64,000 nt of DNA from an uncultured Planctomycetales bacterium (GTDB lineage: Bacteria > Omnitrophota > Gorgyraeia > Zapsychrales > JBDRMG01). The stretch is taken from the NCBI GenBank assembly GCA_964478715.1, contig CAYZIY010000001.1, positions 213,196 to 277,195 of the forward strand, written 5' to 3'. The translations under genes and the position numbers were made by a program. The notes beneath the pieces were generated by a model. That model was given only the letters and a program-made list of their open reading frames with translations. It did no database searches and had not been told where the DNA came from. This document shows, piece after piece, positions 5,884 to 62,659 of the stretch. Every line of letters begins with the position of its first letter. The first letter of the stretch is position 1.

Positions 5884-7078
5884 CGAGACAGTCTCTTGAT
5901 TGAACGGTATTTTTCTTCCGCTGTTTAATCCCTCCGATGATTGAACACAACGCTCCCACCGGACAAAAATAACAGCACCAAAAACGGTATTTAAATAAGG
6001 AAATGAGAATAAGCAGGCCCAAAAATAAAAGACCCAGCCAGGTCAATCGGGATCCAAAAAGAAGCACGTAAGGTTCAAAAATAATCGCCTGAGTATTGCC
6101 GAGGATAAAGGCGATCAGCAAACTGGCAAAAAGAACAAGAAAGCGGATATTTCTTAAAAAATCTATTTTACTAGTCGGTTGCAGGCGTTTGATTTTGATT
6201 TTTCTTGCGAACGACCAGGTTATTTCCTGGATACCCCCGAAGGGACATAAGGATCGACAGTAAATATTACGATAGAAAAGGACGCTTAAGAGCGCTAAAC
6301 CGATAATCATAAAAATAAGAGGAAACACGGCCAGGGAAGGTCCTTTTCGCATGGTCAAATTGGCCACGTGAATAATCGAAAACATGGTTTGGGTCAGGAA
6401 ACCGAAGTAAAAGAGGCCGGCTATAATGGCTATCCAGCGCAGCCACTTATTTTTCAAAAAGCTGGCGATAAAAGCAACCACAAAAAGAATAAGAGGAAAA
6501 AAGATCTGGTCCACAGGCCATGCATTTTTCTGATCATTAATGAATTCTCCCTGGAAACTTCCGATCTGGACACTGAGCGCGATGAGGCTTTCTTTCAGCG
6601 TATTTAAGACGGCCTGCGAAGTGACGGTGGCTCCGCTGATGCCGTCAACATCTTCTCCTAAACGGCTTAATGGATTGACGCCTTGATCGACGAGTCGATT
6701 GACATAGCCCTGCAGATCATCCATATAACCGGGTGTCTCCTGATGGGAGAGGACGCGAATACGGGTGACATTTAGCTGAGGGTCTGTCACGACCAGCATC
6801 TCGATCGCTCCGGTATAGCCGATGATATGTTTAGCGAGTTCTGATGTGAGAAAGGCATAAGCCGAAGGTTCTGGTGCTTGAGAAGAAGAGGAATCAAAAA
6901 TTTTATAATAACTGCGGGCGGCTTGGACTCTCTCAATTCGTTGGTTGCCGGAAAGCATGCGGCTGAGTTCTTGCTCGATATCGCTTTGCTGTTTTAAAGC
7001 GGGCGCTTTAAAATACTGCAAGAAAACAAAACCACACAGCGTGATTAGCAGAATGAAGAGCGTATAATTTTTACGCAT
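5876..7078 (-). CDS. FMN-binding-domain membrane protein with polyferredoxin-like Cys motifs (NosR/NapH/RnfG-like)
   Basis: A signal anchor is followed by a periplasmic FMN_bind-like segment (GISGATVTSQAV). Transmembrane helices then carry CPFGG and CYFCPVGALCS 4Fe-4S-type motifs. Confidence 0.6.
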   Translation of the reverse strand: MRKNYTLFILLITLCGFVFLQYFKAPALKQQSDIEQELSRMLSGNQRIERVQAARSYYKIFDSSSSQAPEPSAYAFLTSELAKHIIGYTGAIEMLVVTDPQLNVTRIRVLSHQETPGYMDDLQGYVNRLVDQGVNPLSRLGEDVDGISGATVTSQAVLNTLKESLIALSVQIGSFQGEFINDQKNAWPVDQIFFPLILFVVAFIASFLKNKWLRWIAIIAGLFYFGFLTQTMFSIIHVANLTMRKGPSLAVFPLIFMIIGLALLSVLFYRNIYCRSLCPFGGIQEITWSFARKIKIKRLQPTSKIDFLRNIRFLVLFASLLIAFILGNTQAIIFEPYVLLFGSRLTWLGLLFLGLLILISLFKYRFWCCYFCPVGALCSIIGGIKQRKKNTVQSRDCLDE

Positions 7079-25624: not shown

Positions 25625-25661
25625 GGGCTGAAATCACGTAGTGATTTCAGCCCTTTTTCTT
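25625..25661 (+). terminator. Rho-independent terminator (GGGCTGAAATCAC-gta-GTGATTTCAGCCC + TTTTTCTT)
   Basis: A 13-bp perfect stem with a 3-nt loop and a T-tract lies 23 nt after the PFOR stop. Confidence 0.8.
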
Positions 25662-25743
25662 GACCCGTAAAGAAAATTGTCCCTTGCTCCATCTGCTGTT
25701 TCGCAGTACAATCAAAAAAAGAATAAAGGAAAACAAATGCATC

Positions 25744-27531
25744 ATGTCCATCCAGAAAACCAAAAAACAAATCACGGATGATCTCAAAGGTCACGAGCGG
25801 CCCTTTCGCAATCTCATCGAATCGCTTAAAACCGGAGTGTACATGGCGGATTCTCAAGGCCGCCTGATTTACGCCAACCGTTCCTATGTGCAGATACTCG
25901 GTTACAAAAGTAAGAAAGAACTCTTTGGCGTTAATATTGAGAAGCGGCTTTACGGCAACCCGGATGACCGGCGGAAATTTTTAAAACGCATGCGCCAGGA
26001 TGGTTTTGTTAAAGACTATGAAGTCAAAAATAAGCGAAAAGACGGTTCGGAAATTATTCTTTCTGTCACCAGCAATCTTATCCGCAATGATTTGGGGCAT
26101 ATTGTGGGAACCGAAGGGATCGTCCGTGACATCACTGAGGAAAAAAGGGCTCAAGAAGCGATTCGCCGGGAAAAGGATTTCAGTCAGGCCCTGCTGGATA
26201 CAATTCCTTTTGGCATGGAGATTGTCGATGAAAACGGGATGATTCTATTTCTTAATAATCAGTTTAAGATATTATTCGGCTCAAAAGCGATCGGAAAAAA
26301 ATGTTGGGAGCTCTACAAAGACAATAAAAAGCAGTGTTCGATGTGCCCTTTGTTGAAGGGAATTAAGATTGGCGAAACGAAAACAATTGAAACCGCGGCT
26401 GCTCTTGGCGGACGTTCTTTTGAAATCACGCATACGGGTATGCTTTATGAAGGCAGAAGAGCCATATTGGAAATATTTAAAGATGTTACTGCGCGTAAAG
26501 AAGCTGAGCGGAAACTAAAGATTACTCGGGAGACATTAAAAACTGAAAAACAAAAATTGGAACAGGTCTTGGGGATTGACCAGCGGATCAGCTCCATTTT
26601 GGAAATCAATCATCTGGTCGACTTCATTATTGAGAAGGCCAGCGATATTTTAGAAGCCCAGCGCTGCTCGCTGATGCTTCTTGATCCGCAAACTCAGGAA
26701 TTGATCATCAAAGGCGCGATCGGCCTTGATGAAGATATCATTAAAAACACCAGATTAAAAATTGGTGAACAGATCGCCGGTCGGGTAGCCAAGGAGGGCA
26801 AGCCGCTTTTGGTAGTCAATATCGAATCACAAAAACCTATTGCCCGCAGAAACCGGCCGACTTATCAAGGTAAATCCTTTATTTCGGTTCCCATCAAACT
26901 GCACAATAAAATCGTAGGCGTAGTTAATATTTCCGATAAAGATTCTCTAAAGGAAGATGTGTTTAATCACATTGATTTGAAGATTCTCTCGACCATCGTT
27001 CGTCAGGCAGCAATCGCTATCGAAAACGCAAACTATTACAAGGAGCTCGAGTATCTCTCCAGCTCCGATTCTTTGACCGGACTTTACAATCACCGCTATT
27101 TTGTCAAACGTCTCGATCAGGAAATCGACCGCTCCAAAAGATACCCCAAAGCCTTATGCTTGATGATTGTCGATGTGGATGATTTCAAATCGTACAATGA
27201 TTCCTTTGGCCATCTGGAGGGCGATCATCTTTTAAAGGTAGTCGCCAAACTGCTCAAAAATAGTTTACGATCTGTTGACATTGTCTGCCGCTATGCCGGC
27301 GATGAATTTACGGTGATTCTTCCGGAGACGGACATGAAGGGAGCTCATCGGATCGCCGAAAAAATTCTTGCGGCCACGAAGTCTCTGAAACTCAAGCAAT
27401 CTGTGTCTTTAAGTATTGGCATCTCTTTGTGCACGCCGAAAATGGATCGCTACGATCTGATCATGAAAACCGATCAGGCCTTGTATCAGGCGAAAAAAGA
27501 GGGCAAAGATAAAATATGTACTTTTTCTTAA
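25744..27531 (+). CDS. PAS-GAF-GGDEF diguanylate cyclase
   Basis: A PAS/PAC region (GVYMADSQGRLIYANRSY...) is followed by a second sensory domain and a GAF-like domain. The C-terminal GGDEF domain reads RYAGDEFTVILPETD, with an RxxD I-site-like KRYPKALCLMIVDVDDF. The start is the ATG at 25744, where the ORF track begins at an upstream TTG. Confidence 0.9.
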   Translation: MSIQKTKKQITDDLKGHERPFRNLIESLKTGVYMADSQGRLIYANRSYVQILGYKSKKELFGVNIEKRLYGNPDDRRKFLKRMRQDGFVKDYEVKNKRKDGSEIILSVTSNLIRNDLGHIVGTEGIVRDITEEKRAQEAIRREKDFSQALLDTIPFGMEIVDENGMILFLNNQFKILFGSKAIGKKCWELYKDNKKQCSMCPLLKGIKIGETKTIETAAALGGRSFEITHTGMLYEGRRAILEIFKDVTARKEAERKLKITRETLKTEKQKLEQVLGIDQRISSILEINHLVDFIIEKASDILEAQRCSLMLLDPQTQELIIKGAIGLDEDIIKNTRLKIGEQIAGRVAKEGKPLLVVNIESQKPIARRNRPTYQGKSFISVPIKLHNKIVGVVNISDKDSLKEDVFNHIDLKILSTIVRQAAIAIENANYYKELEYLSSSDSLTGLYNHRYFVKRLDQEIDRSKRYPKALCLMIVDVDDFKSYNDSFGHLEGDHLLKVVAKLLKNSLRSVDIVCRYAGDEFTVILPETDMKGAHRIAEKILAATKSLKLKQSVSLSIGISLCTPKMDRYDLIMKTDQALYQAKKEGKDKICTFS

Positions 27532-36197: not shown

Positions 36198-36872
36198 ATG
36201 CAACTAACCGGAAGCTGGGTTGATTATGTCATTGTTTTTTGGGCTGGCGTTTTAGTCAGTTTCTCACCATGTATCTATCCTCTGATTCCGATCACCGCAT
36301 CCTTTATCGGGGGTGTGAATCCTCGTCAATCAAAGTTTTTCGGATTTTTTGTCTCCGTGATTTATGTTTTTGGCCTGGCTGTTTCCTACAGCGCTTTGGC
36401 CGTTGTGGCGGCTTTAACCGGACGCTTTTTCGGTGATATTCAAAATCATCCTGTTGTTTATTTTATTATTTCCGGTTTTCTTTTTTTCTTCGGCTTAACC
36501 ATGCTTCATGTCATTCCCCTGGGGATGATCGGATTGGATTTTAAAAAGAAGATCAAGATTCAAAACACCTGGTCGGTTCTTGTCTTTGGAATGGCGGCCG
36601 GTCTCATTGTCAGCCCCTGCACAGCGCCTATTTTGGGGACGATCTTGCTCTACATTTCCTCTAAGCAAAATATCATTCATGCGGTCAGCCTGATGTTTGT
36701 TTTCTCTTATGGTGTGGGTTTTCTTCTGATTATTGTCGGAACTTTCTCTGGTTTGCTCAGCGGCCTGCCAAAGTCCGGCGCCTGGATGAATTTCGTCCGA
36801 TATCTTTGCGCTACTGTTTTATTTCTGGCAGCGAGCTATTTTCTGATTAAGGGAATCCGCCTGATGATTTGA
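36198..36872 (+). CDS. ccdA: Cytochrome c-type biogenesis protein CcdA / DsbD transmembrane-domain family
   Basis: Six transmembrane helices are predicted, with the two conserved Cys in FSPCIYPLIP and VSPCTAPILG. Confidence 0.75.
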   Translation: MQLTGSWVDYVIVFWAGVLVSFSPCIYPLIPITASFIGGVNPRQSKFFGFFVSVIYVFGLAVSYSALAVVAALTGRFFGDIQNHPVVYFIISGFLFFFGLTMLHVIPLGMIGLDFKKKIKIQNTWSVLVFGMAAGLIVSPCTAPILGTILLYISSKQNIIHAVSLMFVFSYGVGFLLIIVGTFSGLLSGLPKSGAWMNFVRYLCATVLFLAASYFLIKGIRLMI

Positions 36873-43713: not shown

Positions 43714-43905
43714 ATGGAAAACGGTTTCTCAATAATGATGTTTATGTTTAGTAATACTGGTTATCTTAAGGATATCAATTATACTTTTATCAAGAGGTTG
43801 AAAAAGGTTGTCCGCCGCAGTGTTATGGTGAACAGCAAAACTATAGGGCCCCTTGGATGGTATGGGTGCAACCAGTTGCCAACTAAAAAGGAATTTTCTT
43901 GGTAA
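43714..43905 (+). other. Candidate small gene (63-aa ORF) or sRNA bounded by a promoter-like site (TTGCAT-18-TAGAAT) and an intrinsic terminator
   Basis: A promoter-like site lies at about 43681-43710 and ends 3 nt before the ATG, so the transcript would be leaderless. A terminator sits at 43911-43940. The ORF has no recognisable domain. Confidence 0.3.
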
Positions 43906-43910
43906 ACATG

Positions 43911-43940
43911 ATCCATCCCGCTGGGGGATGGATTTTTTTT
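43911..43940 (+). terminator. Rho-independent terminator (ATCCATCCC-gctg-GGGATGGAT + T8)
   Basis: A perfect 9-bp stem is followed by eight T. It lies immediately before the GGAG RBS of the 43952 gene. Confidence 0.75.
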
Positions 43941-43951
43941 CGGAGAACAAG

Positions 43952-46762
43952 ATGAGTTGTTTGATATCATTAAAATGTCGAAATGAAAATGGCCAGGCTA
44001 TTCTTTTAGGCGTGATCGGTCTGACTCTTTTATTGGTGGGGGTGGCTACGGCTCATTTTATCCAAACGACCAACGCGGCTTTGGTTTTGCGGACAGAAAA
44101 TAAGAATAATATGGCTTTGTTCAATGCCCAAAGAGGATTGGAATATGTCGTTTATGAATTAGCTTTTGCAGCACCAGAGCCGATTAACTGGTTTACTCAC
44201 CAAGCTCAAAGTGATCAATCACTTGTTTATGCCGAAGGGAATTTTTTTGCAGAATATGGGATTCAGTTGGGAAATATAAACGAAATTTATTACGATGCGG
44301 ATAATCCGCAAGATAGCGGATATCGCTCTAAGTTGGATCAAGAAGTGCAGTTTATCGCGAAAATTTATAATGATCCTTCCAATATTTTAAATCAAGCTAA
44401 TAAGATCATATTGGTCAAAGGCATTAGCGGTGATACCCAACGCATGATTGCCAGCAGGGTGGACTTGACCTCTTTGTATGAATACTTTATTTTTGACCCC
44501 AATTCCGGGCGTAGCATTCGCGGTAATCTAGATGCTGGCGGAGGCCGCATTCATATCAATGGTGACGTGACGCTTTTCGGCAATGCCCAGATTTTTAATT
44601 TGGGGGAACTTAATGTCAACGGCTATTTTATATACGATTCTATACGTTTTTATGTTCCCATGTATGACACAACAGCTATTCCGGCAGGTGAAGTCGGAGG
44701 ACCCGCTGCGGGTGTTACGGGGATGTTTGTGGATGATCAATACCGGACATTGGCTCCTCGCTTTGACGATGGTCTTCCCGGGACGGTGACGTGGGCCCAG
44801 ATGCAGGGGATTGATGATGCCGATGGTAATCCGAATTGGAAAGTGGGAGCGTGCAGCGGAATGTCTGATGAGTCGCAATGCGCTTTTAGTGATTTGAGCG
44901 GTCCTCAAAAATACTATTCGCTGGAAAAACTGATTTATCACGCGAATCCATTTACTGGAAGCGGCATTGGGACGCTCCAGGGTGATCGCTGGGGATCTGT
45001 GTGCGAAAAAGGGAACACGGGTGTTTTTAGCGGCTGCGGAAGTACTTACGGCCGGGAGGAAGACGGCCATATCTGGGAATTTCGTCATCCGCATCTGTAT
45101 CCGGATTCATACATGTATAAGAATTACGGACAATCGGATGAAATGGTTGCGCCGACAAAAATTCAACCTGTTGGCGGCGGATCATTGATCCCTATCCCCA
45201 ATCGATTAAATACGAGCTATCGCTGGGATAAATATTATTTTGACGGGTCCCAGGGTCGTTCGAGAATGTATGACGGAGAACGCTATGCATATCCTCCGCC
45301 GGGTACATATGATCCACAGACCCAATGTCCCGAGCCTTATTGCGCGGACGTTCAATATTTGAATACAGAACTACAGGCTCAGGACTGGATTGATTTTTTG
45401 AGGTACGACAATGATAATGACGGGGACGGGATCGGCGATTTATACGGGGTGATTAAAGACAGAAATACCGGGGGAGAGCCGATTAGCCCTCCGGTTTTTG
45501 ATCAAGCCAGATATCAGTCAACTGCACAAAACGAAGGGATCTATATTAGAAATACTGTCCCATCGGATGAATGGAATAATTATGAATACCGTGGGTCAGA
45601 AACAGCATTGAGCCGAGTGAATACTTATTATCGGGATCCCGATAAGACTTTGGATAATAACGGAAGCTATGAAGTCTACATCAAGGGGGTTTCCGATCCC
45701 CTGGTTCCTGATAATGAAGGACAGATCAAAATGAATATTGAGGGAGATGAACTTGTATTATTTGAGAAGAAAGGCTTCTACAATACTCGCTCTACGCTCT
45801 GGACTCAGGTTATTCAGATGAACATTTGTAATCTCAAAAGGGCCATTGACGCGGGTGATTTGGAGTTGGACGAAAATATCTTTTACTCCGATTGGGGAGT
45901 GGCCTTAGCTTGCGCCGAAGAAATCATTGATGGAGGGATGACGGTGATTACCGAAGGAGATGCCTTTACCATCGGCAATGTCAATGTTGATACCGATGAT
46001 CCCAGTAATTTAGATAATCCAGGCTTTGAGCCGGCAGCCATCATAACCGATCGCATGTTTCAGGTTTTATCCGAAGATTTTAATTATCCTCAGGAATTAC
46101 CCGAGCTGGGCAATCACCCTGATTACGACCATAATTTCGGCTATGTCCCTGAGTCGGTCAATCGGCAGTGGATGCATGATCATGATCCGGACAATCCGGG
46201 GGACCCGACGGTTGAAGCCGTGATGCCCAATAAAGTCAGAAATGATGTTTATGTCAATATTTCGGTTCTGGGTGAAAGAGCCACTGACCAAGATGTAGGA
46301 TGGCATCTCGGTTTGGAAATGTGGTCATGGTATGAGGATTGGCTTAATGACGGGGAGGCCGATATCCATGAATTCGAAACATTTACCCGAGGCACGCGTT
46401 TGGATCTTCCTGATGGCGCTTTTGAATCCAAATTTGATTATGGCGGATTAGATATTTCGGTCAATCGCCGTTGCGATCCGACCTGCGGGGCAATTCCTAA
46501 TGGCTGGCCGAGCTGTCGAGGATGTTCGAACTATTGCGATGGGACCGATCCCGATAATCCCTGCCCGGGAAGCTCTACAGGTGTTTTTCCCATCATCTGC
46601 TGTGGTCATCGGAGTGGGCTTTTGGCTTGGGAAAATCGTTATTTGACGGATGGTTTCCCTCCTGGAGATTTACCGGGATTATCTCTAGAGGTCTGGTATC
46701 CCCTTCCCAATACGGAGGAAAACTGGACGACGCATTGCAAACTCTTACAAGGGAATGTGTGA
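43952..46762 (+). CDS. Large secreted/anchored protein (937 aa) with PilX_N-like N-terminus; possible pilus-tip/PilY1-like adhesin
   Basis: The N-terminus NGQAILLGVIGLTLLLVGVATA resembles the PilX_N hydrophobic segment. The rest is Asp, Asn and Gly-rich with many Cys near the C-terminus. The start is the ATG after the terminator, where the track extends upstream. Confidence 0.45.
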   Translation: MSCLISLKCRNENGQAILLGVIGLTLLLVGVATAHFIQTTNAALVLRTENKNNMALFNAQRGLEYVVYELAFAAPEPINWFTHQAQSDQSLVYAEGNFFAEYGIQLGNINEIYYDADNPQDSGYRSKLDQEVQFIAKIYNDPSNILNQANKIILVKGISGDTQRMIASRVDLTSLYEYFIFDPNSGRSIRGNLDAGGGRIHINGDVTLFGNAQIFNLGELNVNGYFIYDSIRFYVPMYDTTAIPAGEVGGPAAGVTGMFVDDQYRTLAPRFDDGLPGTVTWAQMQGIDDADGNPNWKVGACSGMSDESQCAFSDLSGPQKYYSLEKLIYHANPFTGSGIGTLQGDRWGSVCEKGNTGVFSGCGSTYGREEDGHIWEFRHPHLYPDSYMYKNYGQSDEMVAPTKIQPVGGGSLIPIPNRLNTSYRWDKYYFDGSQGRSRMYDGERYAYPPPGTYDPQTQCPEPYCADVQYLNTELQAQDWIDFLRYDNDNDGDGIGDLYGVIKDRNTGGEPISPPVFDQARYQSTAQNEGIYIRNTVPSDEWNNYEYRGSETALSRVNTYYRDPDKTLDNNGSYEVYIKGVSDPLVPDNEGQIKMNIEGDELVLFEKKGFYNTRSTLWTQVIQMNICNLKRAIDAGDLELDENIFYSDWGVALACAEEIIDGGMTVITEGDAFTIGNVNVDTDDPSNLDNPGFEPAAIITDRMFQVLSEDFNYPQELPELGNHPDYDHNFGYVPESVNRQWMHDHDPDNPGDPTVEAVMPNKVRNDVYVNISVLGERATDQDVGWHLGLEMWSWYEDWLNDGEADIHEFETFTRGTRLDLPDGAFESKFDYGGLDISVNRRCDPTCGAIPNGWPSCRGCSNYCDGTDPDNPCPGSSTGVFPIICCGHRSGLLAWENRYLTDGFPPGDLPGLSLEVWYPLPNTEENWTTHCKLLQGNV

Positions 46763-48103: not shown

Positions 48104-48138
48104 GAACTTATCCATTGGTTCAAATTGACGTCGAGAAA

Positions 48139-49653
48139 ATGAAAAGAGTTTTCTCAATCTTAACGGTTATCTTCTTGTTTTCATCCGTTGCCTGTGGTGA
48201 AACTTTCATCAAAAGACCGAATGTCAGCGGGCGTTTTTATGACAGCCACCCGGCCCAGCTTTCTCAAAAGATCGATATCTATTTTCAGCAGGCGGATATT
48301 AAGCCATGGGAAAAGAATATCCAAATCTTAATGGCGCCTCATGCTGGTTATGCGTTCTCCGGGCCAGTTGCCGCCTATGCCTACAAGGCTGCTTCGAGGC
48401 AGCGGCCCAAAACGATTATTATCTTGGCATCTACTCATTTTCACCGTTTTCAGGGAGTTTCTATCTGGCCCAAAGGACAATTCGAGACGCCTTTAGGCGC
48501 TTTGCCTGTTGATGAGGAGATGACCCAGCAGCTGATCAATTATGACCAGCAGTTTCGGTTTTATCGCAAAGCGTTCGATCAAGAGCATTCCCTGGAAGTC
48601 CAGCTGCCATTTTGCCAAAAGACATTCTCAGATTTTAAGATCGTTCCTTTAATAATGGGGCAGCCAGATTTTGAGATCAGTCAGAAATTGGCTGAAGCTC
48701 TCAATGCCGTGATCGCTCAGCGGAATGATGTTTTGATTGTCATAAGCACGGACATGTCTCATTATAAGCCGGATCAAAAAGCCCGAATAATTGATAGAAA
48801 AACCACGGAGGCTCTAGAAAATTTTAAAATTGAAAAACTGTGGCGGGGATGCCAAAACCGGACAATGGAATTATGCGGGTATTCTTCGGTTGTGACCGGA
48901 CTTCTTTATGCGCGCTTAAGAGGTTTCGGTGGAATTCAAGTGCTGCATTACGGGAATTCGGCGGATGCTTCTGGTGATCAAAGCCGGGTTGTCGGATATA
49001 TGGCGGCTGTCATTTACGAAAAGGAAGATAGAAACTCAAAGCCAAAGAAAGGACAGGCTATCCAAATGAATCCGGACAAAAGAAATGACAGGACGGCCCC
49101 GTTGACTTTAAAACAGAAAACAAAATTGATTGAAGTGGCCAGAGACGCGATCGAGACATTCGTCCTCAGCCAGAAAAAGATTGATCTTAATAATAATGAT
49201 CCGAGGCTGCAGGAAGAAGAAGGCGCTTTTGTCACCATCCACAAAAATGGCCGGTTGCGTGGGTGTATCGGAAATATTATCGGACGCAGACCGTTGATTC
49301 AAACTGTCCGCGATATGGCGATTGCCGCGGCCGTTGATGATCCGCGCTTCCCGCCTTTAAAAAAAGAAGAATGGCAAGATATCGATGTAGAAATTTCTGT
49401 TTTATCCAAGCCGTGGCGCATGCAAGATCCAGACGAATTTCGGGCTGGAGTTCACGGAGCTATTATCCGACGGGGATTCAATCAAGGCGTCTTTCTGCCG
49501 CAGGTGGCTACGGAATTCAGCTGGGGCCGCGACGAATTTCTTTCCCATCTGTGCGCTCACAAGGCGGGTCTGCCGTCTGATGCGTGGAAGGACCCCCGCA
49601 CAGAAGTCCAGTTATTTACAGCCGAGGTTTTTAGCGAGAAGGACATCAAATAA
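48139..49653 (+). CDS. MEMO1-family (AmmeMemoRadiSam protein B) fused to AMMECR1 domain (protein A), with N-terminal lipoprotein-type signal peptide
   Basis: MEMO1 motifs are MAPHAGYAFSG, DMSHY and CGYSS. The AMMECR1 motif is GAFVTIHKNGRLRGCIGNI. The N-terminus reads MKRVFSILTVIFLFSSVAC|G. Confidence 0.8.
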   Translation: MKRVFSILTVIFLFSSVACGETFIKRPNVSGRFYDSHPAQLSQKIDIYFQQADIKPWEKNIQILMAPHAGYAFSGPVAAYAYKAASRQRPKTIIILASTHFHRFQGVSIWPKGQFETPLGALPVDEEMTQQLINYDQQFRFYRKAFDQEHSLEVQLPFCQKTFSDFKIVPLIMGQPDFEISQKLAEALNAVIAQRNDVLIVISTDMSHYKPDQKARIIDRKTTEALENFKIEKLWRGCQNRTMELCGYSSVVTGLLYARLRGFGGIQVLHYGNSADASGDQSRVVGYMAAVIYEKEDRNSKPKKGQAIQMNPDKRNDRTAPLTLKQKTKLIEVARDAIETFVLSQKKIDLNNNDPRLQEEEGAFVTIHKNGRLRGCIGNIIGRRPLIQTVRDMAIAAAVDDPRFPPLKKEEWQDIDVEISVLSKPWRMQDPDEFRAGVHGAIIRRGFNQGVFLPQVATEFSWGRDEFLSHLCAHKAGLPSDAWKDPRTEVQLFTAEVFSEKDIK

Positions 49654-49746: not shown

Positions 49747-50151
49747 ATGGCTGCTCAAAAGAGAAGTTTTTTTAGAGTCACAGAATTCCAGAAACCATTT
49801 TTAAATCTCGTCATAGGATTGGCTGTTATTACGCTAACCATGATGGTTGTTTGCATCGGATTTCTCCTTTATGATGTATCCACTTTTATTGTGGATCCGC
49901 AAAGCACGGTTAACACCATGAAGGCCATGGTGTATTTACTTTTAATTCTCCTTCCATTGATTTTGATGGGAGGCATCTTTTGGGCCTATTACATTACCAG
50001 TAAGGTGATTGGTCCCTTTGAGCGGTTGATCCGAGAGCTTGATGAAATTCTGGAAACAGGAAAGAAAAAGCATCTGCAGACTCGACAGGGTGACCGGCTG
50101 GCCAAGGAGATGCTCAAGCGTATTAATGCCTTGATCGATCGCATGTCATGA
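49747..50151 (+). CDS. Small membrane protein (2 TM + C-terminal helix)
   Basis: Two hydrophobic helices are followed by a charged amphipathic tail. Confidence 0.45.
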   Translation: MAAQKRSFFRVTEFQKPFLNLVIGLAVITLTMMVVCIGFLLYDVSTFIVDPQSTVNTMKAMVYLLLILLPLILMGGIFWAYYITSKVIGPFERLIRELDEILETGKKKHLQTRQGDRLAKEMLKRINALIDRMS

Positions 50152-50504
50152 AGTTGCCTTTCAGCGGTCTTTTTTTCTTTCTGTTGATCTCCGGAGTTGT
50201 ATTTGCCCATCCCCCAGATGCGATCCATTTATCCTATCAAGAGGATACTCAGATTCTCAAGATTGTGGTCGATCATAACGCCCGTAATATCAGAGATCAT
50301 TTTATCCGACGAATTGTTGTTCTACACAATAAACAGGAAATAAGAGATGAGATTTTTCCAACTCAGAGTGATCATCAGACGCAGATAATGGATGTTTCTC
50401 TCAAGGCAGAGAATGGCGACCGTATTCGGGTAAAAGCCTATTGTTCGCAGGCGGGATACAAAGAGAAGACTCTCGATATAGTCTTAGAAGAAGATGATAA
50501 ATAG
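50148..50504 (+). CDS. Small secreted protein, unknown function
   Basis: The signal peptide reads MKLPFSGLFFFLLISGVVFA. The gene overlaps the upstream gene by 4 bp. Confidence 0.45.
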   Translation: MKLPFSGLFFFLLISGVVFAHPPDAIHLSYQEDTQILKIVVDHNARNIRDHFIRRIVVLHNKQEIRDEIFPTQSDHQTQIMDVSLKAENGDRIRVKAYCSQAGYKEKTLDIVLEEDDK

Positions 50505-50522: not shown

Positions 50523-50570
50523 AAATCCCGCCCTTTTAGACAGAAGTCCAAAAGGGCGGGATTTATTTTT
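50523..50570. terminator. Bidirectional rho-independent terminator (15-bp stem AAATCCCGCCCTTTT/AAAAGGGCGGGATTT) between convergent genes
   Basis: A perfect 15-bp inverted repeat has A-runs upstream and T-runs downstream. Confidence 0.8.
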
Positions 50571-50586: not shown

Positions 50587-51483
50587 TTATCTCAGTAGTG
50601 TTTTCACTCTAGTATCCGTAGCCGGATCTTCCGGAGGCGGTGGCGGAGGAAGAACCGGATCTGATGGCTCCTGAGGTGCGCTCAATTCAAAGTGAGCATA
50701 ACCTCCGCTGGTTTCCTCTTCAATACATTCCGGGGCTGGACCTTTGCTGCTTAAATATTCAGAAAGATAAGTCAGGTCTTCGATGTTGATGGCTCCATCT
50801 GCATTGACATCGCCCGTACCTTCGGCCAAAGCCGCTCCTGAGCGGAACATGAAATTCGCCAAATGAACAGCATCTTGTTGATTCACGGCGGCATCATTAT
50901 TGATATCGGCACAAGAATAATACACTCTTATTTCCGGATCACAGATTGGCGCAGGACCGCTGCCGCTGATAAATTGGCTTAAAAAGACCACATCGCTGAT
51001 ATTTCTGGCGCCGTCTCCGTTCATATCACAATCCTCATCAGGGATTGTGCCATCATTTAAGATAGCATCGGCATCAGCATAATTGATTTTATTATCTTTA
51101 TTGACATCCGCGCAAGGCGCCTGGCGATAACTGGGGCAAAGCGGTGCCGGTCCGCCCTGAAGAAGATAATCATTCAGATAATTTAAATCCACAACATTAA
51201 CAATACCATCTAAATTCATATCGGCTGCATGTTCAAGCGGAGGAGGCGACCCCTGGTGAAACATATATTGAATCAAATAGGGCAGGTCCATCAAATGGAC
51301 CATTCCGTTTCCATCCACATCACCGCAGACAAAATTGCTGGGAAGGGAAGGATAGACCGGTGTTTCGTCTCCGGCATTATCCGTTGCTCCGCTAAAATCC
51401 CAGCTGCCATCAGCTGCATAAGCCAATGACTGTGCACCAACAAACAATACGCAAATAACTAAACCTGTGATTAATTTTTTCAT
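50587..51483 (-). CDS. Secreted protein composed of six dockerin-type (EF-hand-like Ca-binding) repeats plus Pro-rich C-terminus
   Basis: The signal peptide is MKKLITGLVICVLFVGAQSLAYA. Six DxNxDGxxNxxD...L..[YF]L segments follow, for example DMNLDGIVNVVDLNYLNDYLL and DVNADGAINIEDLTYLSEYL. The tail reads PPPPPPEDP. The RBS is GAGGAGGG. Confidence 0.7.
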   Translation of the reverse strand: MKKLITGLVICVLFVGAQSLAYAADGSWDFSGATDNAGDETPVYPSLPSNFVCGDVDGNGMVHLMDLPYLIQYMFHQGSPPPLEHAADMNLDGIVNVVDLNYLNDYLLQGGPAPLCPSYRQAPCADVNKDNKINYADADAILNDGTIPDEDCDMNGDGARNISDVVFLSQFISGSGPAPICDPEIRVYYSCADINNDAAVNQQDAVHLANFMFRSGAALAEGTGDVNADGAINIEDLTYLSEYLSSKGPAPECIEEETSGGYAHFELSAPQEPSDPVLPPPPPPEDPATDTRVKTLLR

Positions 51484-51522
51484 TTTTATTCCCTCCTCTG
51501 AAAATTTCTTTTGCTGCCCAAT

Positions 51523-51555
51523 AAAAAAACCTGCATCCTTTTCTGAATACAGGTT
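51523..51555 (-). terminator. Intrinsic terminator/attenuator hairpin (ACCUGUA...UGCAGGU + U7) in the 5' leader of the dockerin gene
   Basis: On the minus strand a 7-bp stem with a 12-nt loop is followed by TTTTTTT. It lies about 25 nt upstream of the RBS and downstream of the riboswitch aptamers. Confidence 0.55.
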
Positions 51556-51571
51556 CGTCTGGTCATATACC

Positions 51572-51662
51572 GTCTTGATTCGGCAGCCAGGCTATCCTGT
51601 TTAAGGACCCTTAACTTTGCGCCCCCGCCTTCCGGCGCACACAAAATGTGTGTCAACTGATA
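51572..51662 (-). ncRNA. c-di-GMP-I (GEMM-I)-like riboswitch aptamer, copy 2 (gene-proximal)
   Basis: The minus-strand sequence reads ...GCGCC-GGAA-GGCG GGGGCGCAAAGUU AAGGGUCCUUAAAC...GGCUGCCGAAUC. It has a GNRA-capped hairpin followed by GCGCAAAG, and a 3' UGCCGAA element. It is related to copy 1 but a weaker match. Confidence 0.45.
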
Positions 51663-51695
51663 ATGCAGTTGAGGTTTACCTTTATCGTCAAGCGT

Positions 51696-51800
51696 TCTTA
51701 ATTCGGTAGCTAGGCTGCCCTATATCCTTATAAGCCTCTACCATAGGGCCCTGTGGCTTTGCGAGATCATCTTGCGATGATTGTGCTTTTGTCGTTAAGA
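51696..51800 (-). ncRNA. c-di-GMP-I (GEMM-I)-like riboswitch aptamer, copy 1
   Basis: The minus strand reads UCUUAA-CGACAAAA-GCACAA-UCAUC-[GCAA]-GAUGAU-CUCGCAAAGCC-ACAGGGCCCUAUGG...AUAGGGCAGCC-UAGCUACCGAA-UUAAGA. P1 pairs UCUUAA with UUAAGA. P2 has a GNRA loop. The CGCAAAGCC and UACCGA elements align with Vibrio Vc2 GCAAAC-CAUUC-[GAAA]-GAGUGG-GACGCAAAGCC...GGUUACCGA. Confidence 0.65.
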
Positions 51801-52072
51801 GACGTGAATACGGATTTTAAAGAACGATTGCTTCTAAACATAAGCATAAAACATAATCGAGGTCTATGCCAAAGATATTTTGAGAAAGTTGTGTTTTTTT
51901 GAAAACGTTTTCTTTAATTTTCTTACTTGCTGTAAATAAATAAGTTATAATAACAAGATTTTATCATGCCAAGAAAAAAACATGGACGTTTTTATGAAGC
52001 AGAAGTAAAATACAAACGTAAAATGAAGCCTGTTAAACATACAACGGTGTTATTCAACAGAAAACGGAACCG

Positions 52073-55438: not shown

Positions 55439-56491
55439 ATGAGCTGGTTTCGATTAAAAATGCCTTCGGTTTATCAGGTGGAGGCGCGCGGTAGCTTTCG
55501 GATCAATGAGCGCTTTCCGTTGATTTGGCATCTAAAAGACAGTTCCGTTGGCTCAACGGCGCTCGTGCGCAACTTAAGCGCCACCGGGATGATGCTTGAG
55601 GCGGATATTCAAAGCCCTCCTCCGGTGGACAGTGTTTTATCTTTCGAAATCAAAGGCGATCATCCCTTGGGCGTGATTCCGCCTTTGGGCCGAATTGTTT
55701 GGAGTAAACCAAAATCCTGTATTTCTTCCCGCTCTTTGTACGGCATTGAATTCATCGAGCCGGTCCAGGACATTTTGTTGCGTCTGCGTGAATTTATTCA
55801 GCAGAAAATTATCCGAATGGAGAATGCAGAAAGGGTAAAAGCAAGGATAGGCATCGTTCTTTTTATTATCTTGACTGCAGTTTTGGCTTTCTGTTTGTTT
55901 CAGCAAAATGCTATTCACCGCAATTATGAAAAATCCTATCATCTAATGACAGCTAGTTCCCAGGCCCAGGCATCGACATATGGCGAATTACGCATGCAAT
56001 ATCAGAATCAGAGGGAAGTTCTTAAGGTAATTTCGATCGATTTAAGCAAATCTCAGGCTCTCTTAGAAGAAACCGAAGTCATGTTGACCTCTGTTCGAAA
56101 GGAAAGCGAGGCCGCTTTGGGCCGGCTCAACAGCGAAATTAATAATTTACATCAAAAGAATTCGGCTTTATCCGATCAGTTGGAAGAAGCGCAAGGTCAA
56201 CTGGCTGTGTATGAGGTTAACCCCGACAATTTGGATGAAGCTAAGGCCATTCTTTCTTTTCATCAAGCAATGATTGCCAAGATAAAAAGAAAGATCAATA
56301 ATCTAAGACAGCAGGCTCGCATGGCTTATGTGAAGGTCCAGAAAAAGAGAGACGAATACGCTTTAGCCATGGGAAATAATGGTTTTATTATCAAAAACGG
56401 AAAGCCTGTTCCCCCATATCAGTCTGAATATTACTCCCGCATGAAGCGGTCTTCCCCTGAGATCGAAATCGACGTAACGCTGGTGGAATAA
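55439..56491 (+). CDS. PilZ-domain protein with TM helix and long C-terminal coiled-coil
   Basis: The N-terminal PilZ-like motifs are an RxxxR region (EARGSFRINER) and NLSATG (D/NxSxxG). A TM helix (IVLFIILTAVLAFCLF) is followed by heptad-rich sequence. Confidence 0.55.
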   Translation: MSWFRLKMPSVYQVEARGSFRINERFPLIWHLKDSSVGSTALVRNLSATGMMLEADIQSPPPVDSVLSFEIKGDHPLGVIPPLGRIVWSKPKSCISSRSLYGIEFIEPVQDILLRLREFIQQKIIRMENAERVKARIGIVLFIILTAVLAFCLFQQNAIHRNYEKSYHLMTASSQAQASTYGELRMQYQNQREVLKVISIDLSKSQALLEETEVMLTSVRKESEAALGRLNSEINNLHQKNSALSDQLEEAQGQLAVYEVNPDNLDEAKAILSFHQAMIAKIKRKINNLRQQARMAYVKVQKKRDEYALAMGNNGFIIKNGKPVPPYQSEYYSRMKRSSPEIEIDVTLVE

Positions 56492-59350: not shown

Positions 59351-62300
59351 ATGAACAGCCTTATGCCTCAAGCACATAGAAACACATCAGCATCCGAATA
59401 CGCCTTAAATGAAAAAGGCGCTTTTCTGATTCACAATTACAATAAATCTAACGCTTTTTGTAACTTTTTCCCTGGAGTGGCCGGTTTATGGGGGATTCCC
59501 ATGTGGGTATTTTATGTCAATCGAGGTCAGTGTATCTCAAGTTTCGGGGTGGAGAGCAAGGACAAGGCTATTATGGAGTTTCAGCCGGCCGATAAAGCCT
59601 ATCGCATGACATCTCATCAGGGTTTTCGTACATTTATGAAAGTCAGCAGAGATCGCAAAGTTTTTTTTTATGAGCCATTTGCCGAAACGATCGCCAATAA
59701 CCAGTTTGTGCGTAGTCAGGAAATGGCGATTACATCCCATGATTTGACGATTGAGGAAATTAATGAAACTCTGGGCCTCAAGGTCCGGGTGAATTATTTT
59801 ACTGTTCCCTCTGAAAATTTTGCCTCTCTCGTACGGGATATTACAATCACCAATCTATCAAGCAAACATTGTTATCTTGATTTGGTCGACGGCATGCCGG
59901 TCATTGTTCCTTTTGGCGTCAACCATCAGCTTCAGAAAGATATTTCGCGTACCGTTCAAGCGTGGAATCAGGTGAATAATTTCAAAGCAAAAGCGCCGAT
60001 TTATAATCTTAAAGTGAAGATTGCCGATCGTCCGGAAGTAGAGACCATTGAAGGAGGACATTTCTTTTTCAGTCTCATGCACAACGGATACAAACCTAAG
60101 CCCCTCTCTGTGGTCATTGATCCGGTTTGTGTTTTTGGTAGCCATTTGGATTACAATATTCCAGACCTTTTTCTGAAACAAAAGAAATTTAATGTTCCCC
60201 GCCGGCAAATGTCGAGCAATCGTTCTGTTAGCGCCATGAGTCATGCTTTTTTGGATTTGCCCGCAAAAGGGGATCAGAGAATAACATCTTTCTTTGGCCA
60301 TACTCATAATATTGATGAGATTAGTCAAATATTAGCTAAAACGAGGAAGAAAGATTATATTGCCAAGAAATCTGAGGAGAACGAGCGAATTATCAAGGAT
60401 ATTAAGAATTATTGCCTAACCAACAGCTCATCGAAGGCCTTGAATCATTATTGCGGTCAGACATTTCTTGATAATGTTTTGCGTGGTGGGCTGCCTCAGT
60501 GTATTGAAGCCGATGACGGACGGATTGTTTTTAATGTGTATAGTCGTAAACACGGCGATCTGGAGAGGGATTATAATTATTTTGTGCTGGCTCCAACCTA
60601 TCTATCCCAGGGAAACGGAAATTACCGGGATGTGAATCAAAACAGGCGCAATGATGTGTGGTTTGATACGCGGGTGAGAGAAAGCCATATCTTGCAGTTT
60701 CTTAATCTTCTTCAGGCCGACGGATACAATCCTTTGGTTGTCCAGGGGACAGCTTTTTCGATCGATAGTACGCATAAAATCGAACAATTTGTTAATGAGT
60801 TCGGGCAGGGGCGAGGCAAGACGCACCTGAAAAAACTGTTGTCAAAGAAATTCCAGCCCGGACAGTTATTAAAAACTATCGAAGAAGAGAAAATCAAACT
60901 CAAGGTTCCAGGAGACGAATTTCTTAAGAGAATTCTCAGACATTGTCAAAAGCATGATGTCGCTCGGCATGGAGAAGGATTTTGGAGCGATCATTGGACG
61001 TACTGTCTGGATCTTCTAGAGCGTTATTTCGCGCTTTATCCGGAAGATAAGAAAAAGCTATTTCTCGAGCAGAATCAATTCAAGTTTTTTTATAACAGGT
61101 ATCATATCTTACCGCTTGACCAGAGATTCGTTCTTACTCCGCGCGGTGTGCGTCAATACCATTCCGTTAAGAAGCTGCCTCGCGAGATGCTCCCGCCTCA
61201 GTACGATGGACAGCTTAGGGCAAAGGAAGGGAAGGGAGATGTTTATTTTACAAACCTTTTTGTCAAATTATTGTGTACTATTGTCAATAAAGCGGCTACG
61301 TTTGATCCCAGCGGTGTGGGTATAGAAATGGAAGGCGGCAAGCCCAATTGGTATGATGCTCTTAACGGGCTCCCTGGCTTGATGGGGTCTTCTCTCAATG
61401 AAACGCTCGAATTAAAACGCTGGTGTCTCTTTGTCCGTCGAGTTATTGAAGACTTGGATCTTAAAGACCACCAAGAGTTGTATGTATTTGAAGAGCTTTG
61501 TAGTTTGATGTCAGCCTTGCATGATCTTTTGGCAACGCAACAGGATGATTTGTCTTACTGGCGGCGTTCTAATGAAGTTAAAGAACACTACCGGCGCCGT
61601 ATTCTCGAGGGAATTGACGGACACGAGAAGGCCGTCCCGATCTCTTCGATCGATAAATTCCTGGAACGGGTGATCTGTAAGTGTGATTGCGCTCTTGAAA
61701 AGGCCAAAGATAGCCACGGACTTTTAAGAACTTATTTTACGCATGAAGTAACACAATACGATGAGTTGGAACGAACAGGATTCGATGGATGCCCTTTGGT
61801 TCATCCTCTGAATTTCAAGATGAGGGCTTTGCCGCTTTTCTTGGAAGGTTTTGTCCATGCCATGCGTGTTCAGAAAGATCAAATCCGAGCCAGGGCTTTG
61901 TATCAAAAGGTAAGAGGGAGCCGTCTTTTTGATAAAAAATTAAAGATGTATCGTTGCAATGACGACCTTTCGGGCGAGAGTCCTGAAATAGGCCGCTGTC
62001 ATGTGTTTCCGCCGGGTTGGTTGGAGAATCAGTCAATCTGGCAACACATGCAGAAGAAGTTTCTTTTGGAATTGTTGCGCTATGGCTTATACGAAGAATT
62101 TTTTAATAATATGAAAAAGACATTGATTCCGTTTTTAAACCCCAAAAGATATGGGCGCAGTATTTTGGAGAATTCTTCATTTATTGTTAGTTCAGCACAT
62201 GAAGATGTTAAACTGCATGGAAAAGGTTTCGTGGCGCGCTTAAGCGGGACCACAGCGGAATGGCTTCATATCTGGCTGATCTTGAATGCGGGAGAAACTC

Positions 62301-62659
62301 CTTTTGCGATAGATCAGAAGGGGAGTCTCGAATTGTGCTTCAAACCGATACTACCCGGTTGGATGTTTACAAAACGCGAATCTGTGATCGAACGATTCGA
62401 CAGAAATCATGTATATAAAAAGATGGTGATGCCCAAAAATACTTATGCGTTTCATTTTTTAGGAACTACTCTTGTGGTTTATCATAATCCTCGTCGGCGC
62501 GATACTTTCGGCAAGAATAAGGCTTCGATAGAGAGAATCCTCATTTCCTATCCGGATCATCGGGATCCTATCCATATATCCGGAAACTGTGTTCCCTCCC
62601 AATATGCGCTCGATATCAGAAATAACAAAGTCAATCGCATCGACGTTTACATGAAATAG
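59351..62659 (+). CDS. Large conserved hypothetical protein (1102 aa); possibly an (alpha/alpha)6 glycoside hydrolase/phosphorylase-like fold
   Basis: No signal peptide is present. A weak resemblance to GH94-like NWYDALNGLPG was noted. There is no secure domain call. Confidence 0.4.
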   Translation: MNSLMPQAHRNTSASEYALNEKGAFLIHNYNKSNAFCNFFPGVAGLWGIPMWVFYVNRGQCISSFGVESKDKAIMEFQPADKAYRMTSHQGFRTFMKVSRDRKVFFYEPFAETIANNQFVRSQEMAITSHDLTIEEINETLGLKVRVNYFTVPSENFASLVRDITITNLSSKHCYLDLVDGMPVIVPFGVNHQLQKDISRTVQAWNQVNNFKAKAPIYNLKVKIADRPEVETIEGGHFFFSLMHNGYKPKPLSVVIDPVCVFGSHLDYNIPDLFLKQKKFNVPRRQMSSNRSVSAMSHAFLDLPAKGDQRITSFFGHTHNIDEISQILAKTRKKDYIAKKSEENERIIKDIKNYCLTNSSSKALNHYCGQTFLDNVLRGGLPQCIEADDGRIVFNVYSRKHGDLERDYNYFVLAPTYLSQGNGNYRDVNQNRRNDVWFDTRVRESHILQFLNLLQADGYNPLVVQGTAFSIDSTHKIEQFVNEFGQGRGKTHLKKLLSKKFQPGQLLKTIEEEKIKLKVPGDEFLKRILRHCQKHDVARHGEGFWSDHWTYCLDLLERYFALYPEDKKKLFLEQNQFKFFYNRYHILPLDQRFVLTPRGVRQYHSVKKLPREMLPPQYDGQLRAKEGKGDVYFTNLFVKLLCTIVNKAATFDPSGVGIEMEGGKPNWYDALNGLPGLMGSSLNETLELKRWCLFVRRVIEDLDLKDHQELYVFEELCSLMSALHDLLATQQDDLSYWRRSNEVKEHYRRRILEGIDGHEKAVPISSIDKFLERVICKCDCALEKAKDSHGLLRTYFTHEVTQYDELERTGFDGCPLVHPLNFKMRALPLFLEGFVHAMRVQKDQIRARALYQKVRGSRLFDKKLKMYRCNDDLSGESPEIGRCHVFPPGWLENQSIWQHMQKKFLLELLRYGLYEEFFNNMKKTLIPFLNPKRYGRSILENSSFIVSSAHEDVKLHGKGFVARLSGTTAEWLHIWLILNAGETPFAIDQKGSLELCFKPILPGWMFTKRESVIERFDRNHVYKKMVMPKNTYAFHFLGTTLVVYHNPRRRDTFGKNKASIERILISYPDHRDPIHISGNCVPSQYALDIRNNKVNRIDVYMK

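Follow-up and report, generated by a model that had tools for sequence, protein, structure and literature searches.

A dockerin-only exported protein behind tandem c-di-GMP-I aptamers at a syntenic locus of Omnitrophota-type genomes

We analyzed a 64,000-nucleotide (nt) stretch of contig CAYZIY010000001.1 (assembly GCA_964478715.1), referred to here as the window, in which a first-pass annotation had described a secreted protein made only of dockerin repeats as the cargo of a riboswitch for cyclic di-GMP (c-di-GMP). The gene encodes an exported protein of 298 amino acids (aa) composed of three dockerin modules and lies directly behind two c-di-GMP-I aptamers that share a single intrinsic terminator. 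Dockerin-only genes at the corresponding position beside asmA in two further, divergent genomes also carry c-di-GMP-I leaders, and conservation in three genomes strengthens the central observation of that annotation. The explanation that we consider best overall, with a probability of about 0.6, is a conserved unit that is gated by c-di-GMP as an OFF switch and exports a multivalent, dockerin-only docking protein. The coordinates of the features discussed are collected in Table 1.

Table 1. Features of the dockerin-only gene and its leader, in window coordinates
Feature	Position	Strand	Basis
Conserved upstream box AAGAAAACGTTTTC	51901..51914	(-)	alignment of four leaders
Promoter-like site TTGGCA-N18-TATGCT	51843..51872	(-)	consensus scan
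c-di-GMP-I aptamer 1, including P1 (UCUUAA/UUAAGA)	51696..51800	(-)	Rfam and fold
P2 3' strand of aptamer 1, GGAUAUAGG, candidate antiterminator strand	51719..51727	(-)	inferred, post hoc
c-di-GMP-I aptamer 2, including P1 (CUUGA/UCAAG)	51573..51692	(-)	Rfam and fold
Intrinsic terminator GAACCUGUAUUC-AGAAAA-GGAUGCAGG, then U7	51523..51556	(-)	scan and fold
Post-terminator motif AUUGGGCAGC	51513..51522	(-)	comparison of four leaders
Ribosome-binding site GAGGAGGG, strong	51491..51498	(-)	read from sequence, 7 nt ahead of ATG
Coding sequence, 298-aa dockerin-only exported protein	50587..51483	(-)	ATG start
Signal peptide, aa 1-23 (MKKLITGLVICVLFVGAQSLAYA, cleaved ahead of A)	51415..51483	(-)	by inspection
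Dockerin module 1, aa 53-116, between Cys53 and Cys116	51136..51327	(-)	Pfam, 40.2 bits
Dockerin module 2, aa 124-181, between Cys124 and Cys181	50941..51114	(-)	Pfam, 27.1 bits
Dockerin module 3, aa 191-253, between Cys191 and Cys253	50725..50913	(-)	Pfam, 47.8 bits
Low-confidence C-terminal tail, aa 254-298	50590..50724	(-)	predicted-structure confidence, no family match
3' terminator, 19-bp hairpin, strong, bidirectional, common to the convergent operon	50523..50564	(-)	terminator scan

The exported protein is composed of three dockerin modules

The coding sequence is present as exact copies in NCBI and in two Logan assemblies, the Logan contigs being 100% identical to the window, and it is monocistronic, with an asmA-like gene diverging upstream and two small genes converging from downstream. 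By inspection its N-terminus is of the Sec/signal peptidase I type, with MKK followed by the hydrophobic core LITGLVICVLFVGA and by QSLAYA, cleavage being placed ahead of AD; no lipobox was seen in this signal peptide, and the N-termini of the orthologues P0120, P0115 and P0040 resemble it. Six D-x-[DN]-x-[DN] calcium loops start at residues 55, 88, 126, 153, 193 and 225, of which those of repeats 3 (DVNKDNKINYAD) and 5 (DINNDAAVNQQD) are degenerate at some loop positions. The signal peptide, the six repeats and the proline tail were thus found as first described; in the probably disordered tail, PPPPPP spans residues 279–284 (nt 50632-50649), and the protein then ends with EDPATDTRVKTLLR. The mature protein is strongly acidic (45 D+E versus 10 K+R).

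The whole protein matches the Pfam model Dockerin_1 (PF00404) at E=1e-22 and 80.5 bits, and each of the three repeat pairs, when scanned singly, exceeds the cut-off of 22.9 bits. Because each pair passes on its own, the six repeats are three dockerin modules. We rejected assignment of the repeats to a generic EF-hand or thrombospondin type-3 family, since PF00404 is significant for every module and these profiles are under their cut-offs or give no match: EF-hand_7 reaches 29.4 bits where 30 are required, the remaining EF-hand models reach 6.7–13.7 bits where 25–26 are required, and TSP_3 gave no match to the protein at E<=10. No other Pfam or NCBIfam domain was found at cut-off, which confirms the earlier statement that neither a catalytic nor a cohesin domain is present. 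An anchor domain is likewise absent. The 29 residues ahead of module 1 and the 45 residues past module 3 match no Pfam family.

Dockerins are recognized by a duplicated calcium loop, with Asp or Asn at loop positions 1, 3, 5, 9 and 12, and a helix that follows it; the sequence has six such loops, two of them degenerate as noted above, and the predicted structure has six main helices, two per module. AlphaFold2 run with a first alignment was confident for module 1 alone (predicted local distance difference test score, pLDDT, of 93–97), because the aligned hits covered one module, and with an alignment of full-length relatives all three modules were predicted with pLDDT values of 66–83 (about 70–76 for module 2 and about 66–83 for module 3). 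The stretches ahead of module 1 and past module 3 have pLDDT <50 for most of their length; in the tail this applies to residues 256–274 and 286–298, with residues 275–285 outside any such segment. All 26–28 high-probability matches returned by Foldseek from the PDB are dockerins, with template modeling (TM) scores (target) of 0.7–0.85 and root mean square deviations (rmsd) of 1.4–2.4 Å. The top match is the double-dockerin of Clo1313_0689 from Clostridium thermocellum (8X39), aligned over two modules and 133 columns. The paired repeats are therefore predicted to adopt the dockerin fold, in line with the original description.

Each module is positioned between two cysteines, and module 2 has an additional Cys152 and a shortened first repeat. 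Among six aligned sequences, Cys53, Cys116, Cys124, Cys181, Cys191 and Cys253 are matched in most, Cys124 alone being strictly invariant. The bracket, Cys-G-D...GPAP-x-Cys, is also found in single-module relatives, and this dockerin subtype occurs in uncultivated diderm lineages, for example Zixibacteria and Thermoanaerobaculia. We infer that one disulfide between the flanking cysteines clamps each module.

Two c-di-GMP-I aptamers precede the gene and share one terminator

Both aptamers match the Rfam family RF01051 above its gathering score of 35 bits, aptamer 1 at 51797..51702 with 50.2 bits (E=7.7e-07) and aptamer 2 at 51690..51579 with 37.1 bits (E=0.0013). The P1 helix is closed in the minimum-energy fold of each aptamer folded alone (z=-3.3 for aptamer 2). 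Aptamer 2 contains an insertion of 45 nt, comprising three hairpins, within P1b. The aptamers lie 3–11 nt apart, the smaller figure being the gap between their P1 helices, with no terminator between them. The first-pass annotation had placed the gene under c-di-GMP control; the gene does lie directly behind c-di-GMP-I aptamers, but the switch is a tandem pair and not one aptamer.

The ligand-contact positions G20, A47 and C92 (Vc2 numbering) are G, A and C in aptamer 2 and A, A and C in aptamer 1. The A at the G20 equivalent of aptamer 1 was mapped by model position (position 11, just 5' of the G21-C46 pair), in agreement with the A47 position in the same alignment.

The terminator begins 16 nt past P1 of aptamer 2, and its hairpin (51556..51527) is self-contained, with a folding energy of -15.6 kcal/mol and z=-5.9.

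The riboswitch-led unit is conserved beside asmA

A word-indexed homologue search returned only the exact self-match and single-module matches. The orphan status that this suggested was overturned by an exhaustive HMMER search, which retrieved 10,349 proteins at E<=1e-3; repeat-rich, fast-evolving proteins can pass for orphans in an indexed search. Many of the retrieved proteins are only tandem dockerins, several align to residues 52–258 as a single block, and full-length family members are 28–34% identical to the window protein. Those aligning end to end are P0115 (257 aa), P0120 (308 aa), P0042, P0067 and the C-terminal half of P0040 (437 aa).

P0120, named in NCBI [quoted passage not shown], is encoded at a locus (L003, GCA_043812495.1) that has the same gene order as the window: response regulator, Memo-AMMECR1, 134-aa membrane protein, 118-aa exported protein, dockerin gene, asmA, PD-(D/E)XK, PilZ, 168-aa protein and YgjP. 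The neighboring proteins of the two loci are 30–57% identical (most 35–57%) and the dockerin proteins 28%. P0115 is encoded at a third locus (L016, GCA_964515035.1), adjoining NUDIX and asmA, where it is preceded by a second dockerin-only gene (437 aa). Across these loci the dockerin-only proteins of the unit have diverged to 28–33% identity, and the 437-aa protein has more dockerin modules than the three of the window protein; such fast divergence and variable module number would fit a role at the surface or in partner interaction.

All four asmA-adjacent dockerin-only genes (4/4) have one or two c-di-GMP-I aptamers and a terminator. Rfam identifies two aptamers upstream of the L003 gene, two upstream of the 437-aa gene of L016 (65 and 66 bits with RF03167, of the same clan, 12 nt apart) and one upstream of its 257-aa gene (56 bits). 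Overall the aptamers of the orthologous leaders score 35.8–66.4 bits, the orthologous second aptamers scoring 54 and 66 bits, and the six related aptamers of the orthologous leaders have G at the G20 position. The same Rfam search found no c-di-GMP riboswitch at L004-L007 and L019-L023, dockerin-only or dockerin-bearing loci elsewhere, the riboswitch-free comparison set consisting of six loci, those of P0165, P0164 and P0167 (which adjoin Impact_N) together with those of P0067, P0042 and P0055. Since the riboswitch is present at all four asmA-adjacent genes and at none of the loci elsewhere, the dockerin-only gene is a conserved, lineage-specific regulon member, and from these comparisons we take the dockerin-only protein as c-di-GMP riboswitch cargo to be a conserved lineage feature and not an accident of one genome.

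The leaders of the window, L003 and the two L016 genes (L016a and L016b) share a linker of about 17–25 nt and a terminator of the form AACCUGyA...UGCAGGUU-U7. The terminator is kept in all three related leaders, with one fully compensatory and several one-sided changes in the stem. As the expression platform, then, an intrinsic terminator is present and conserved in four leaders, and its coupling to the aptamers is the putative part of the model considered below. Upstream, the site TTGGCA-N18-TATnCT aligns in all four leaders, and a box (AAGAAAACGCTTTC; AAGAAAmCGyTTkn) is nearly invariant among them, varying at its last two positions.

Several further observations concern these loci. At L016 (3990-6774) the two dockerin-only genes of 437 and 257 aa stand in tandem, each with its own c-di-GMP-I leader and terminator, which reads as a local duplication of the whole regulatory unit. 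The two L003 aptamers (5576-5765 and 5772-5912) carry insertions of about 95 nt and 55 nt within canonical c-di-GMP-I folds, and both contain the same hairpin module, CCGGCRUAGCURAAYGCGAAAGC..AGCGAAGCCGG. Because of its large structured insertion, the upstream L003 aptamer is mis-registered by Rfam; the Rfam register (35.8 bits, with an apparent A at G20) was rejected after folding, which placed the true 5' half, GACGAUAAAGGCAAACCCGUUGUGAAACGGG, at about 5587-5620, followed by the ~95-nt insertion and giving G at the G20 position. The window protein ends in ...KTLLR (50590-50604) and P0120 in ...STMLR, both after a proline-rich stretch, and the L016 proteins have no such ending; this could be a short C-terminal signal or, with n=2, chance. 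At L019 a T-box leader (5832-6019) lies close to the 474-aa dockerin-only gene for P0164, which belongs to another group, and because of this T-box the P0164 group may come from a Firmicutes-like organism.

Proposed mechanism and polarity of the switch

In the mechanism that we propose, occupancy of the aptamers by c-di-GMP would decide transcription read-through into the dockerin gene. Unliganded aptamers would lend a strand that traps the 5' strand of the terminator, forming an antiterminator and leaving the gene ON, and binding of c-di-GMP would lock the aptamers, allow the terminator to form and turn the gene OFF. As two aptamers act on one terminator, the gene would be fully shut off only when both are occupied. 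The product is predicted to fold with Ca2+, with a disulfide clamp on each module, and to function extracytoplasmically as a multivalent docking piece without catalytic activity, which would cross-link or occupy cohesin-like partners whose genes lie elsewhere.

Two characterized switches provide the reference points for polarity: in pilM (ON) the aptamer and the terminator are mutually exclusive, whereas in Cd1 (OFF) the two can form together, with an antiterminator as competitor (PMC9262584). All four leaders follow the Cd1 layout, their terminator being self-contained and set apart from the aptamer. We scored pairing of the P2 3' strand of each aptamer with the terminator 5' strand by a shuffle fraction, the share of shuffles that do as well. 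In window aptamer 1, GGAUAUAGG pairs with CCUGUAUUC of the terminator 5' strand over 9 bp (-12.0 kcal/mol; shuffle fraction 0.002), and in window aptamer 2 ACAGG pairs with CCUGU (0.025). The corresponding pairings are AAACAGG with CCUGUUU for L003 aptamer 1 (0.051), AGGGA with UCCCU for L003 aptamer 2 (0.18) and UAAUAGG with CCUAUUA for L016a (0.023), with a fraction of 0.032 for L016b. The pairing sequences vary between genomes and the complementarity is retained. When the window leader up to the terminator loop is folded without constraints, the minimum-energy structure already holds the helix between aptamer 1 and the terminator. Given that no aptamer overlaps the terminator and that the P2 3' strands have their complement in the terminator 5' strand, we read the leader as probably an OFF switch of the Cd1 type, in which c-di-GMP silences the dockerin gene, on evidence for polarity that is suggestive.

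Alternative explanations

Several observations weigh against a c-di-GMP-gated OFF unit that exports a docking protein. Aptamer 2, with its 45-nt insertion, passes the Rfam cut-off by only 2 bits. In the window the terminator fold is better by ~8 kcal/mol once its 3' strand is present; since it is thus favored at equilibrium, any antiterminator must act kinetically, and the transient Cd1 antiterminator has been described as behaving likewise (PMC9262584). A broader test counted, in minimum-energy folds, how many terminator 5'-strand nucleotides pair with the aptamer; 29–44% of shuffles did as well, and with a generic pairing count no different from shuffles we do not claim a proven antiterminator. 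We had seen the folds before choosing the segment-specific pairing tests, and the two L016 genes (L016a and L016b) are paralogous, so that the evidence for OFF polarity is suggestive only. As the first-pass annotation had noted for cohesins and scaffoldins, no partner is found in the window: none of its approximately 56 open reading frames (ORFs) matches Cohesin (PF00963). Finally, because of the A at the G20 position, the ligand of aptamer 1 could be 3',3'-cGAMP (cyclic GMP-AMP) or both dinucleotides. This last point opens the way to a two-ligand gate in which aptamer 1 senses 3',3'-cGAMP, aptamer 2 senses c-di-GMP and the one terminator integrates both, as the single expression platform shared by the two aptamers would allow. 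The window's only GGDEF protein has by eye what we take to be the canonical ...GHLEGD... residue and not the Hypr Ser, which argues against such a gate, as does the fact that the A is not conserved among the related aptamers. Vc2 becomes bispecific through the G20A change, and A-variants found in nature are either selective for cGAMP or bispecific (PMC6140456, PMC6456294), but A at position 20 alone does not confer selectivity (PMC6140456), and we consider integration of two ligands improbable.

An ON switch is possible but doubtful. It would have the triple dockerin made at high c-di-GMP, in the attached state, to cross-link cohesin-bearing surface proteins or cells, a scenario that we rate as somewhat unlikely. 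In its favor, many c-di-GMP and cGAMP riboswitches ahead of surface, pilus and adhesin genes are ON (pilM, Geobacter GEMM-Ib), the c-di-GMP/c-AMP-GMP riboswitches of the Desulfobacca acetoxidans tandem clusters are predicted to be ON (PMC9481103), dockerin repeats of Omnitrophota have been proposed as adhesins (PMC10066038, bioRxiv 10.1101/2023.11.21.568195), and in three leaders the linker past P1 is complementary to the aptamer 3' strand, as a three-state ON design would need too. Against this, the terminator is self-contained and the P1 3' strand is not part of it; by inspection, and not scored, the linker has no complementarity to either terminator strand that is usable as a ligand-dependent antiterminator; and the complementarity above the shuffle level is that between aptamer-internal strands and the terminator 5' strand, the OFF arrangement. 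By eye there was also no convincing complementarity for sequestration of the ribosome-binding site. With an OFF-type platform, c-di-GMP may repress the gene, which misfits an adhesin induced in the sessile state. Of the earlier suggestion, the non-cellulosomal context is supported; regulated cell-surface docking or adhesion, in the form proposed, is not, and stands only as a possibility.

The protein could also be a Ca2+-binding envelope protein that acts independently of any cohesin, by buffering, by bridging or by binding a polysaccharide, prey or host surface. The flanks of L003 and L016 are, like the window, free of cohesins; the protein is very acidic; and the putative recognition positions 10, 11, 17, 18 and 22, as read from the sequence, differ among the six repeats. 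Non-cellulosomal dockerin-like modules are reportedly often found in genomes without recognizable cohesins, according to the 2009 survey of Peer et al. This reading is nevertheless unlikely, because the three modules keep the full paired-repeat architecture and fold of dockerins, the same subtype is appended to varied exported enzymes (NosD-like, glucose dehydrogenase-like, Kelch and peptidases) in the pattern of a docking tag, and one relative (P0055) combines a faint cohesin match with dockerins. A true cellulosome component, that is, an enzyme-less dockerin protein plugging into a scaffoldin for polysaccharide degradation, would account for the Dockerin_1 match and the similarity in fold to cellulosomal dockerins, and cellulosome producers are known to have multi-dockerin proteins that lack a catalytic domain (PMC12484212). 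We rejected this explanation as highly implausible: neither the window nor the L003 and L016 flanks contain the scaffoldin and dockerin-tagged carbohydrate-active enzyme expected of a cellulosome. The host is a diderm (LpxB, AsmA) anaerobe, syntenic with a metagenome-assembled genome labeled Candidatus Omnitrophota; no scaffoldin, cohesin, carbohydrate-binding module, cellulase or dockerin-tagged enzyme is encoded in the 64 kb, where the sole glycoside-hydrolase match, a GH65 protein, has no dockerin and a six-frame search with a local dockerin hidden Markov model found no second dockerin; and the Cys-bracketed subtype is one of uncultivated diderm lineages.

The best reading of the protein is a soluble, multivalent docking piece, which would be an adaptor or cross-linker or, should it be made when c-di-GMP is low, would compete for docking sites. 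A more specific and distinctly speculative version is that the dockerin-only proteins, repressed by c-di-GMP, act in soluble form as competitors or adaptors at the cohesin-like receptors that dockerin-bearing surface proteins use, including the giant proteins of Omnitrophota. If so, cells at low c-di-GMP would export free multivalent dockerins, whose occupation or re-wiring of docking sites would lead to detachment or re-targeting. High c-di-GMP would fill both aptamers and silence the gene, leaving the sites available for stable host or prey attachment. Such a system would be unprecedented as second-messenger control of a cohesin-dockerin-type interaction network, and it would give a first regulatory handle on attachment in this uncultivated, host-dependent phylum.

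Additional leader motifs and genomic neighborhood

The upstream box, AAGAAAACG(C/T)TTTC, lies about 30 nt upstream of the promoter-like site in all four leaders, and may be a transcription factor site added to the riboswitch or an UP-like element. The post-terminator motif is identical in the window and L003 (about 5962-5971) and absent from both L016 leaders. Of its 10–11 nt, 9–10 can pair with GCUGCCGAAU, the 3' end of aptamer 2, and as the motif lies directly past the U-run it would be present only in read-through transcripts. A metagenome scan with the leader motif CAGGTTTTTTN{0,3}ATTGGGCAGC gave 8 loci, which we discarded as chance matches since none has a riboswitch.

Because the window encodes GGDEF and PilZ proteins, c-di-GMP synthesis and its sensing at the protein level are predicted to be encoded close by. 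The former is a PAS-GAF-GGDEF protein (motif AGDEF; 25660-27531, (+)), and the latter a PilZ-domain protein with a coiled-coil tail (55439-56491, (+)) that is syntenic in L003. A membrane protein of the DsbD/CcdA type (36198-36872, (+); DsbD_TM E=3.7e-36) is a putative envelope thiol-disulfide redox protein and may be relevant to the Cys-bracketed dockerins. The Memo-AMMECR1 fusion gene (48115-49653, (+)) is followed by overlapping genes for a 134-aa protein with two transmembrane segments and a 118-aa exported protein (49747-50504, (+)), the latter with a weak desulfoferrodoxin-like match (E=0.028). The trio is likewise found beside the L003 dockerin gene, there with a duplicated 118-aa gene. 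Pfam gives no match at E<=1 for two large proteins: one of 969 aa (43853-46762, (+)) is rich in Cys and has a hydrophobic segment at its N-terminus that resembles a pseudopilin start, and the other, of 1102 aa (59351-62659, (+)), is apparently cytoplasmic.

Significance and comparison with known systems

The riboswitch class, tandem c-di-GMP-I layouts, dockerin modules and dockerin-only multi-module proteins are already known, and the locus represents neither a new kind of molecule nor a new mechanism. What appears to be new is the association of a dockerin with a c-di-GMP riboswitch, conserved at a syntenic locus in Omnitrophota-type genomes, together with the Cys-bracketed triple-dockerin family and the dual-aptamer, single-terminator layout with large insertions. 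In the searchable literature we found no link between dockerins and c-di-GMP riboswitches, the lone co-occurrence being an unrelated review on mechanical forces in pathogenesis. Uncultivated bacteria have dockerins outside cellulosomes in abundance, and a review describes multi-dockerin proteins as being without known function (PMC12484212). Conservation of the unit across three divergent genomes suggests that the cell needs sharp switching by the signal that governs the choice between the free and the attached state. The unit thus offers an entry point to dockerin roles outside cellulosomes and to attachment control in the Omnitrophota, which are thought to be host-dependent nanobacteria, and provides a compact natural case of two c-di-GMP-I aptamers on one terminator, with structured insertions and one G20A variant.

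The repeats have the features of type I dockerins such as those of C. thermocellum Cel48S and Xyn10B, namely paired 22-residue repeats with a D-x-N-x-D-G...D calcium loop followed by a helix. Unlike type I cellulosomal dockerins, the window protein has three modules in a row with no catalytic or binding domain, the modules are bracketed by cysteines (C-G-D... and ...GPAP-x-C) and the host lineage is diderm and non-cellulolytic. Tandem modules, in some cases free of partner domains, also occur in the multi-dockerin proteins of cellulosome producers, among them the C. thermocellum double-dockerins (that of Clo1313_0689, 8X39/8X3A, and one stand-alone) and the triple to septuple dockerins of Ruminococcus flavefaciens and Oscillospiraceae (PMC12484212). 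Unlike the window protein, these belong to Gram-positive cellulosome systems with known scaffoldins, and the searchable literature reports no riboswitch control for them. Dockerin repeats outside a cellulosome, in what is probably the same phylum, are found in the giant proteins of Omnitrophota, where a part in attaching to host or prey has been suggested for them (PMC10066038, bioRxiv 10.1101/2023.11.21.568195). Those proteins range from thousands to >30,000 aa and also contain membrane anchors and numerous further domains, in contrast to the 298-aa, soluble, exported and riboswitch-led protein described here.

The leader resembles the c-di-GMP-I (GEMM-I) riboswitches Vc2, Cd1 and Bc3-5 in that both aptamers pass the gathering score, and its terminator layout is Cd1-like. 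Tandem c-di-GMP-I doublets are common, with 347 reported, and are filed under multiple expression platforms (PMC9481103), unlike the window aptamers, which share one terminator with no platform between them. It also differs from the usual c-di-GMP-I leader in its large structured insertions (45 nt in the window and about 55–95 nt in L003), the A at G20 in aptamer 1 and the new type of cargo. In Clostridioides difficile, a c-di-GMP-II riboswitch precedes the adhesin CD2831 and a c-di-GMP-I riboswitch precedes the protease ZmpI. The window gene is like these systems, and like Cd1 ahead of the flagella, in that a cyclic-dinucleotide riboswitch would directly gate a single exported or surface gene related to attachment, and differs from them in organism, in riboswitch arrangement and in protein family.

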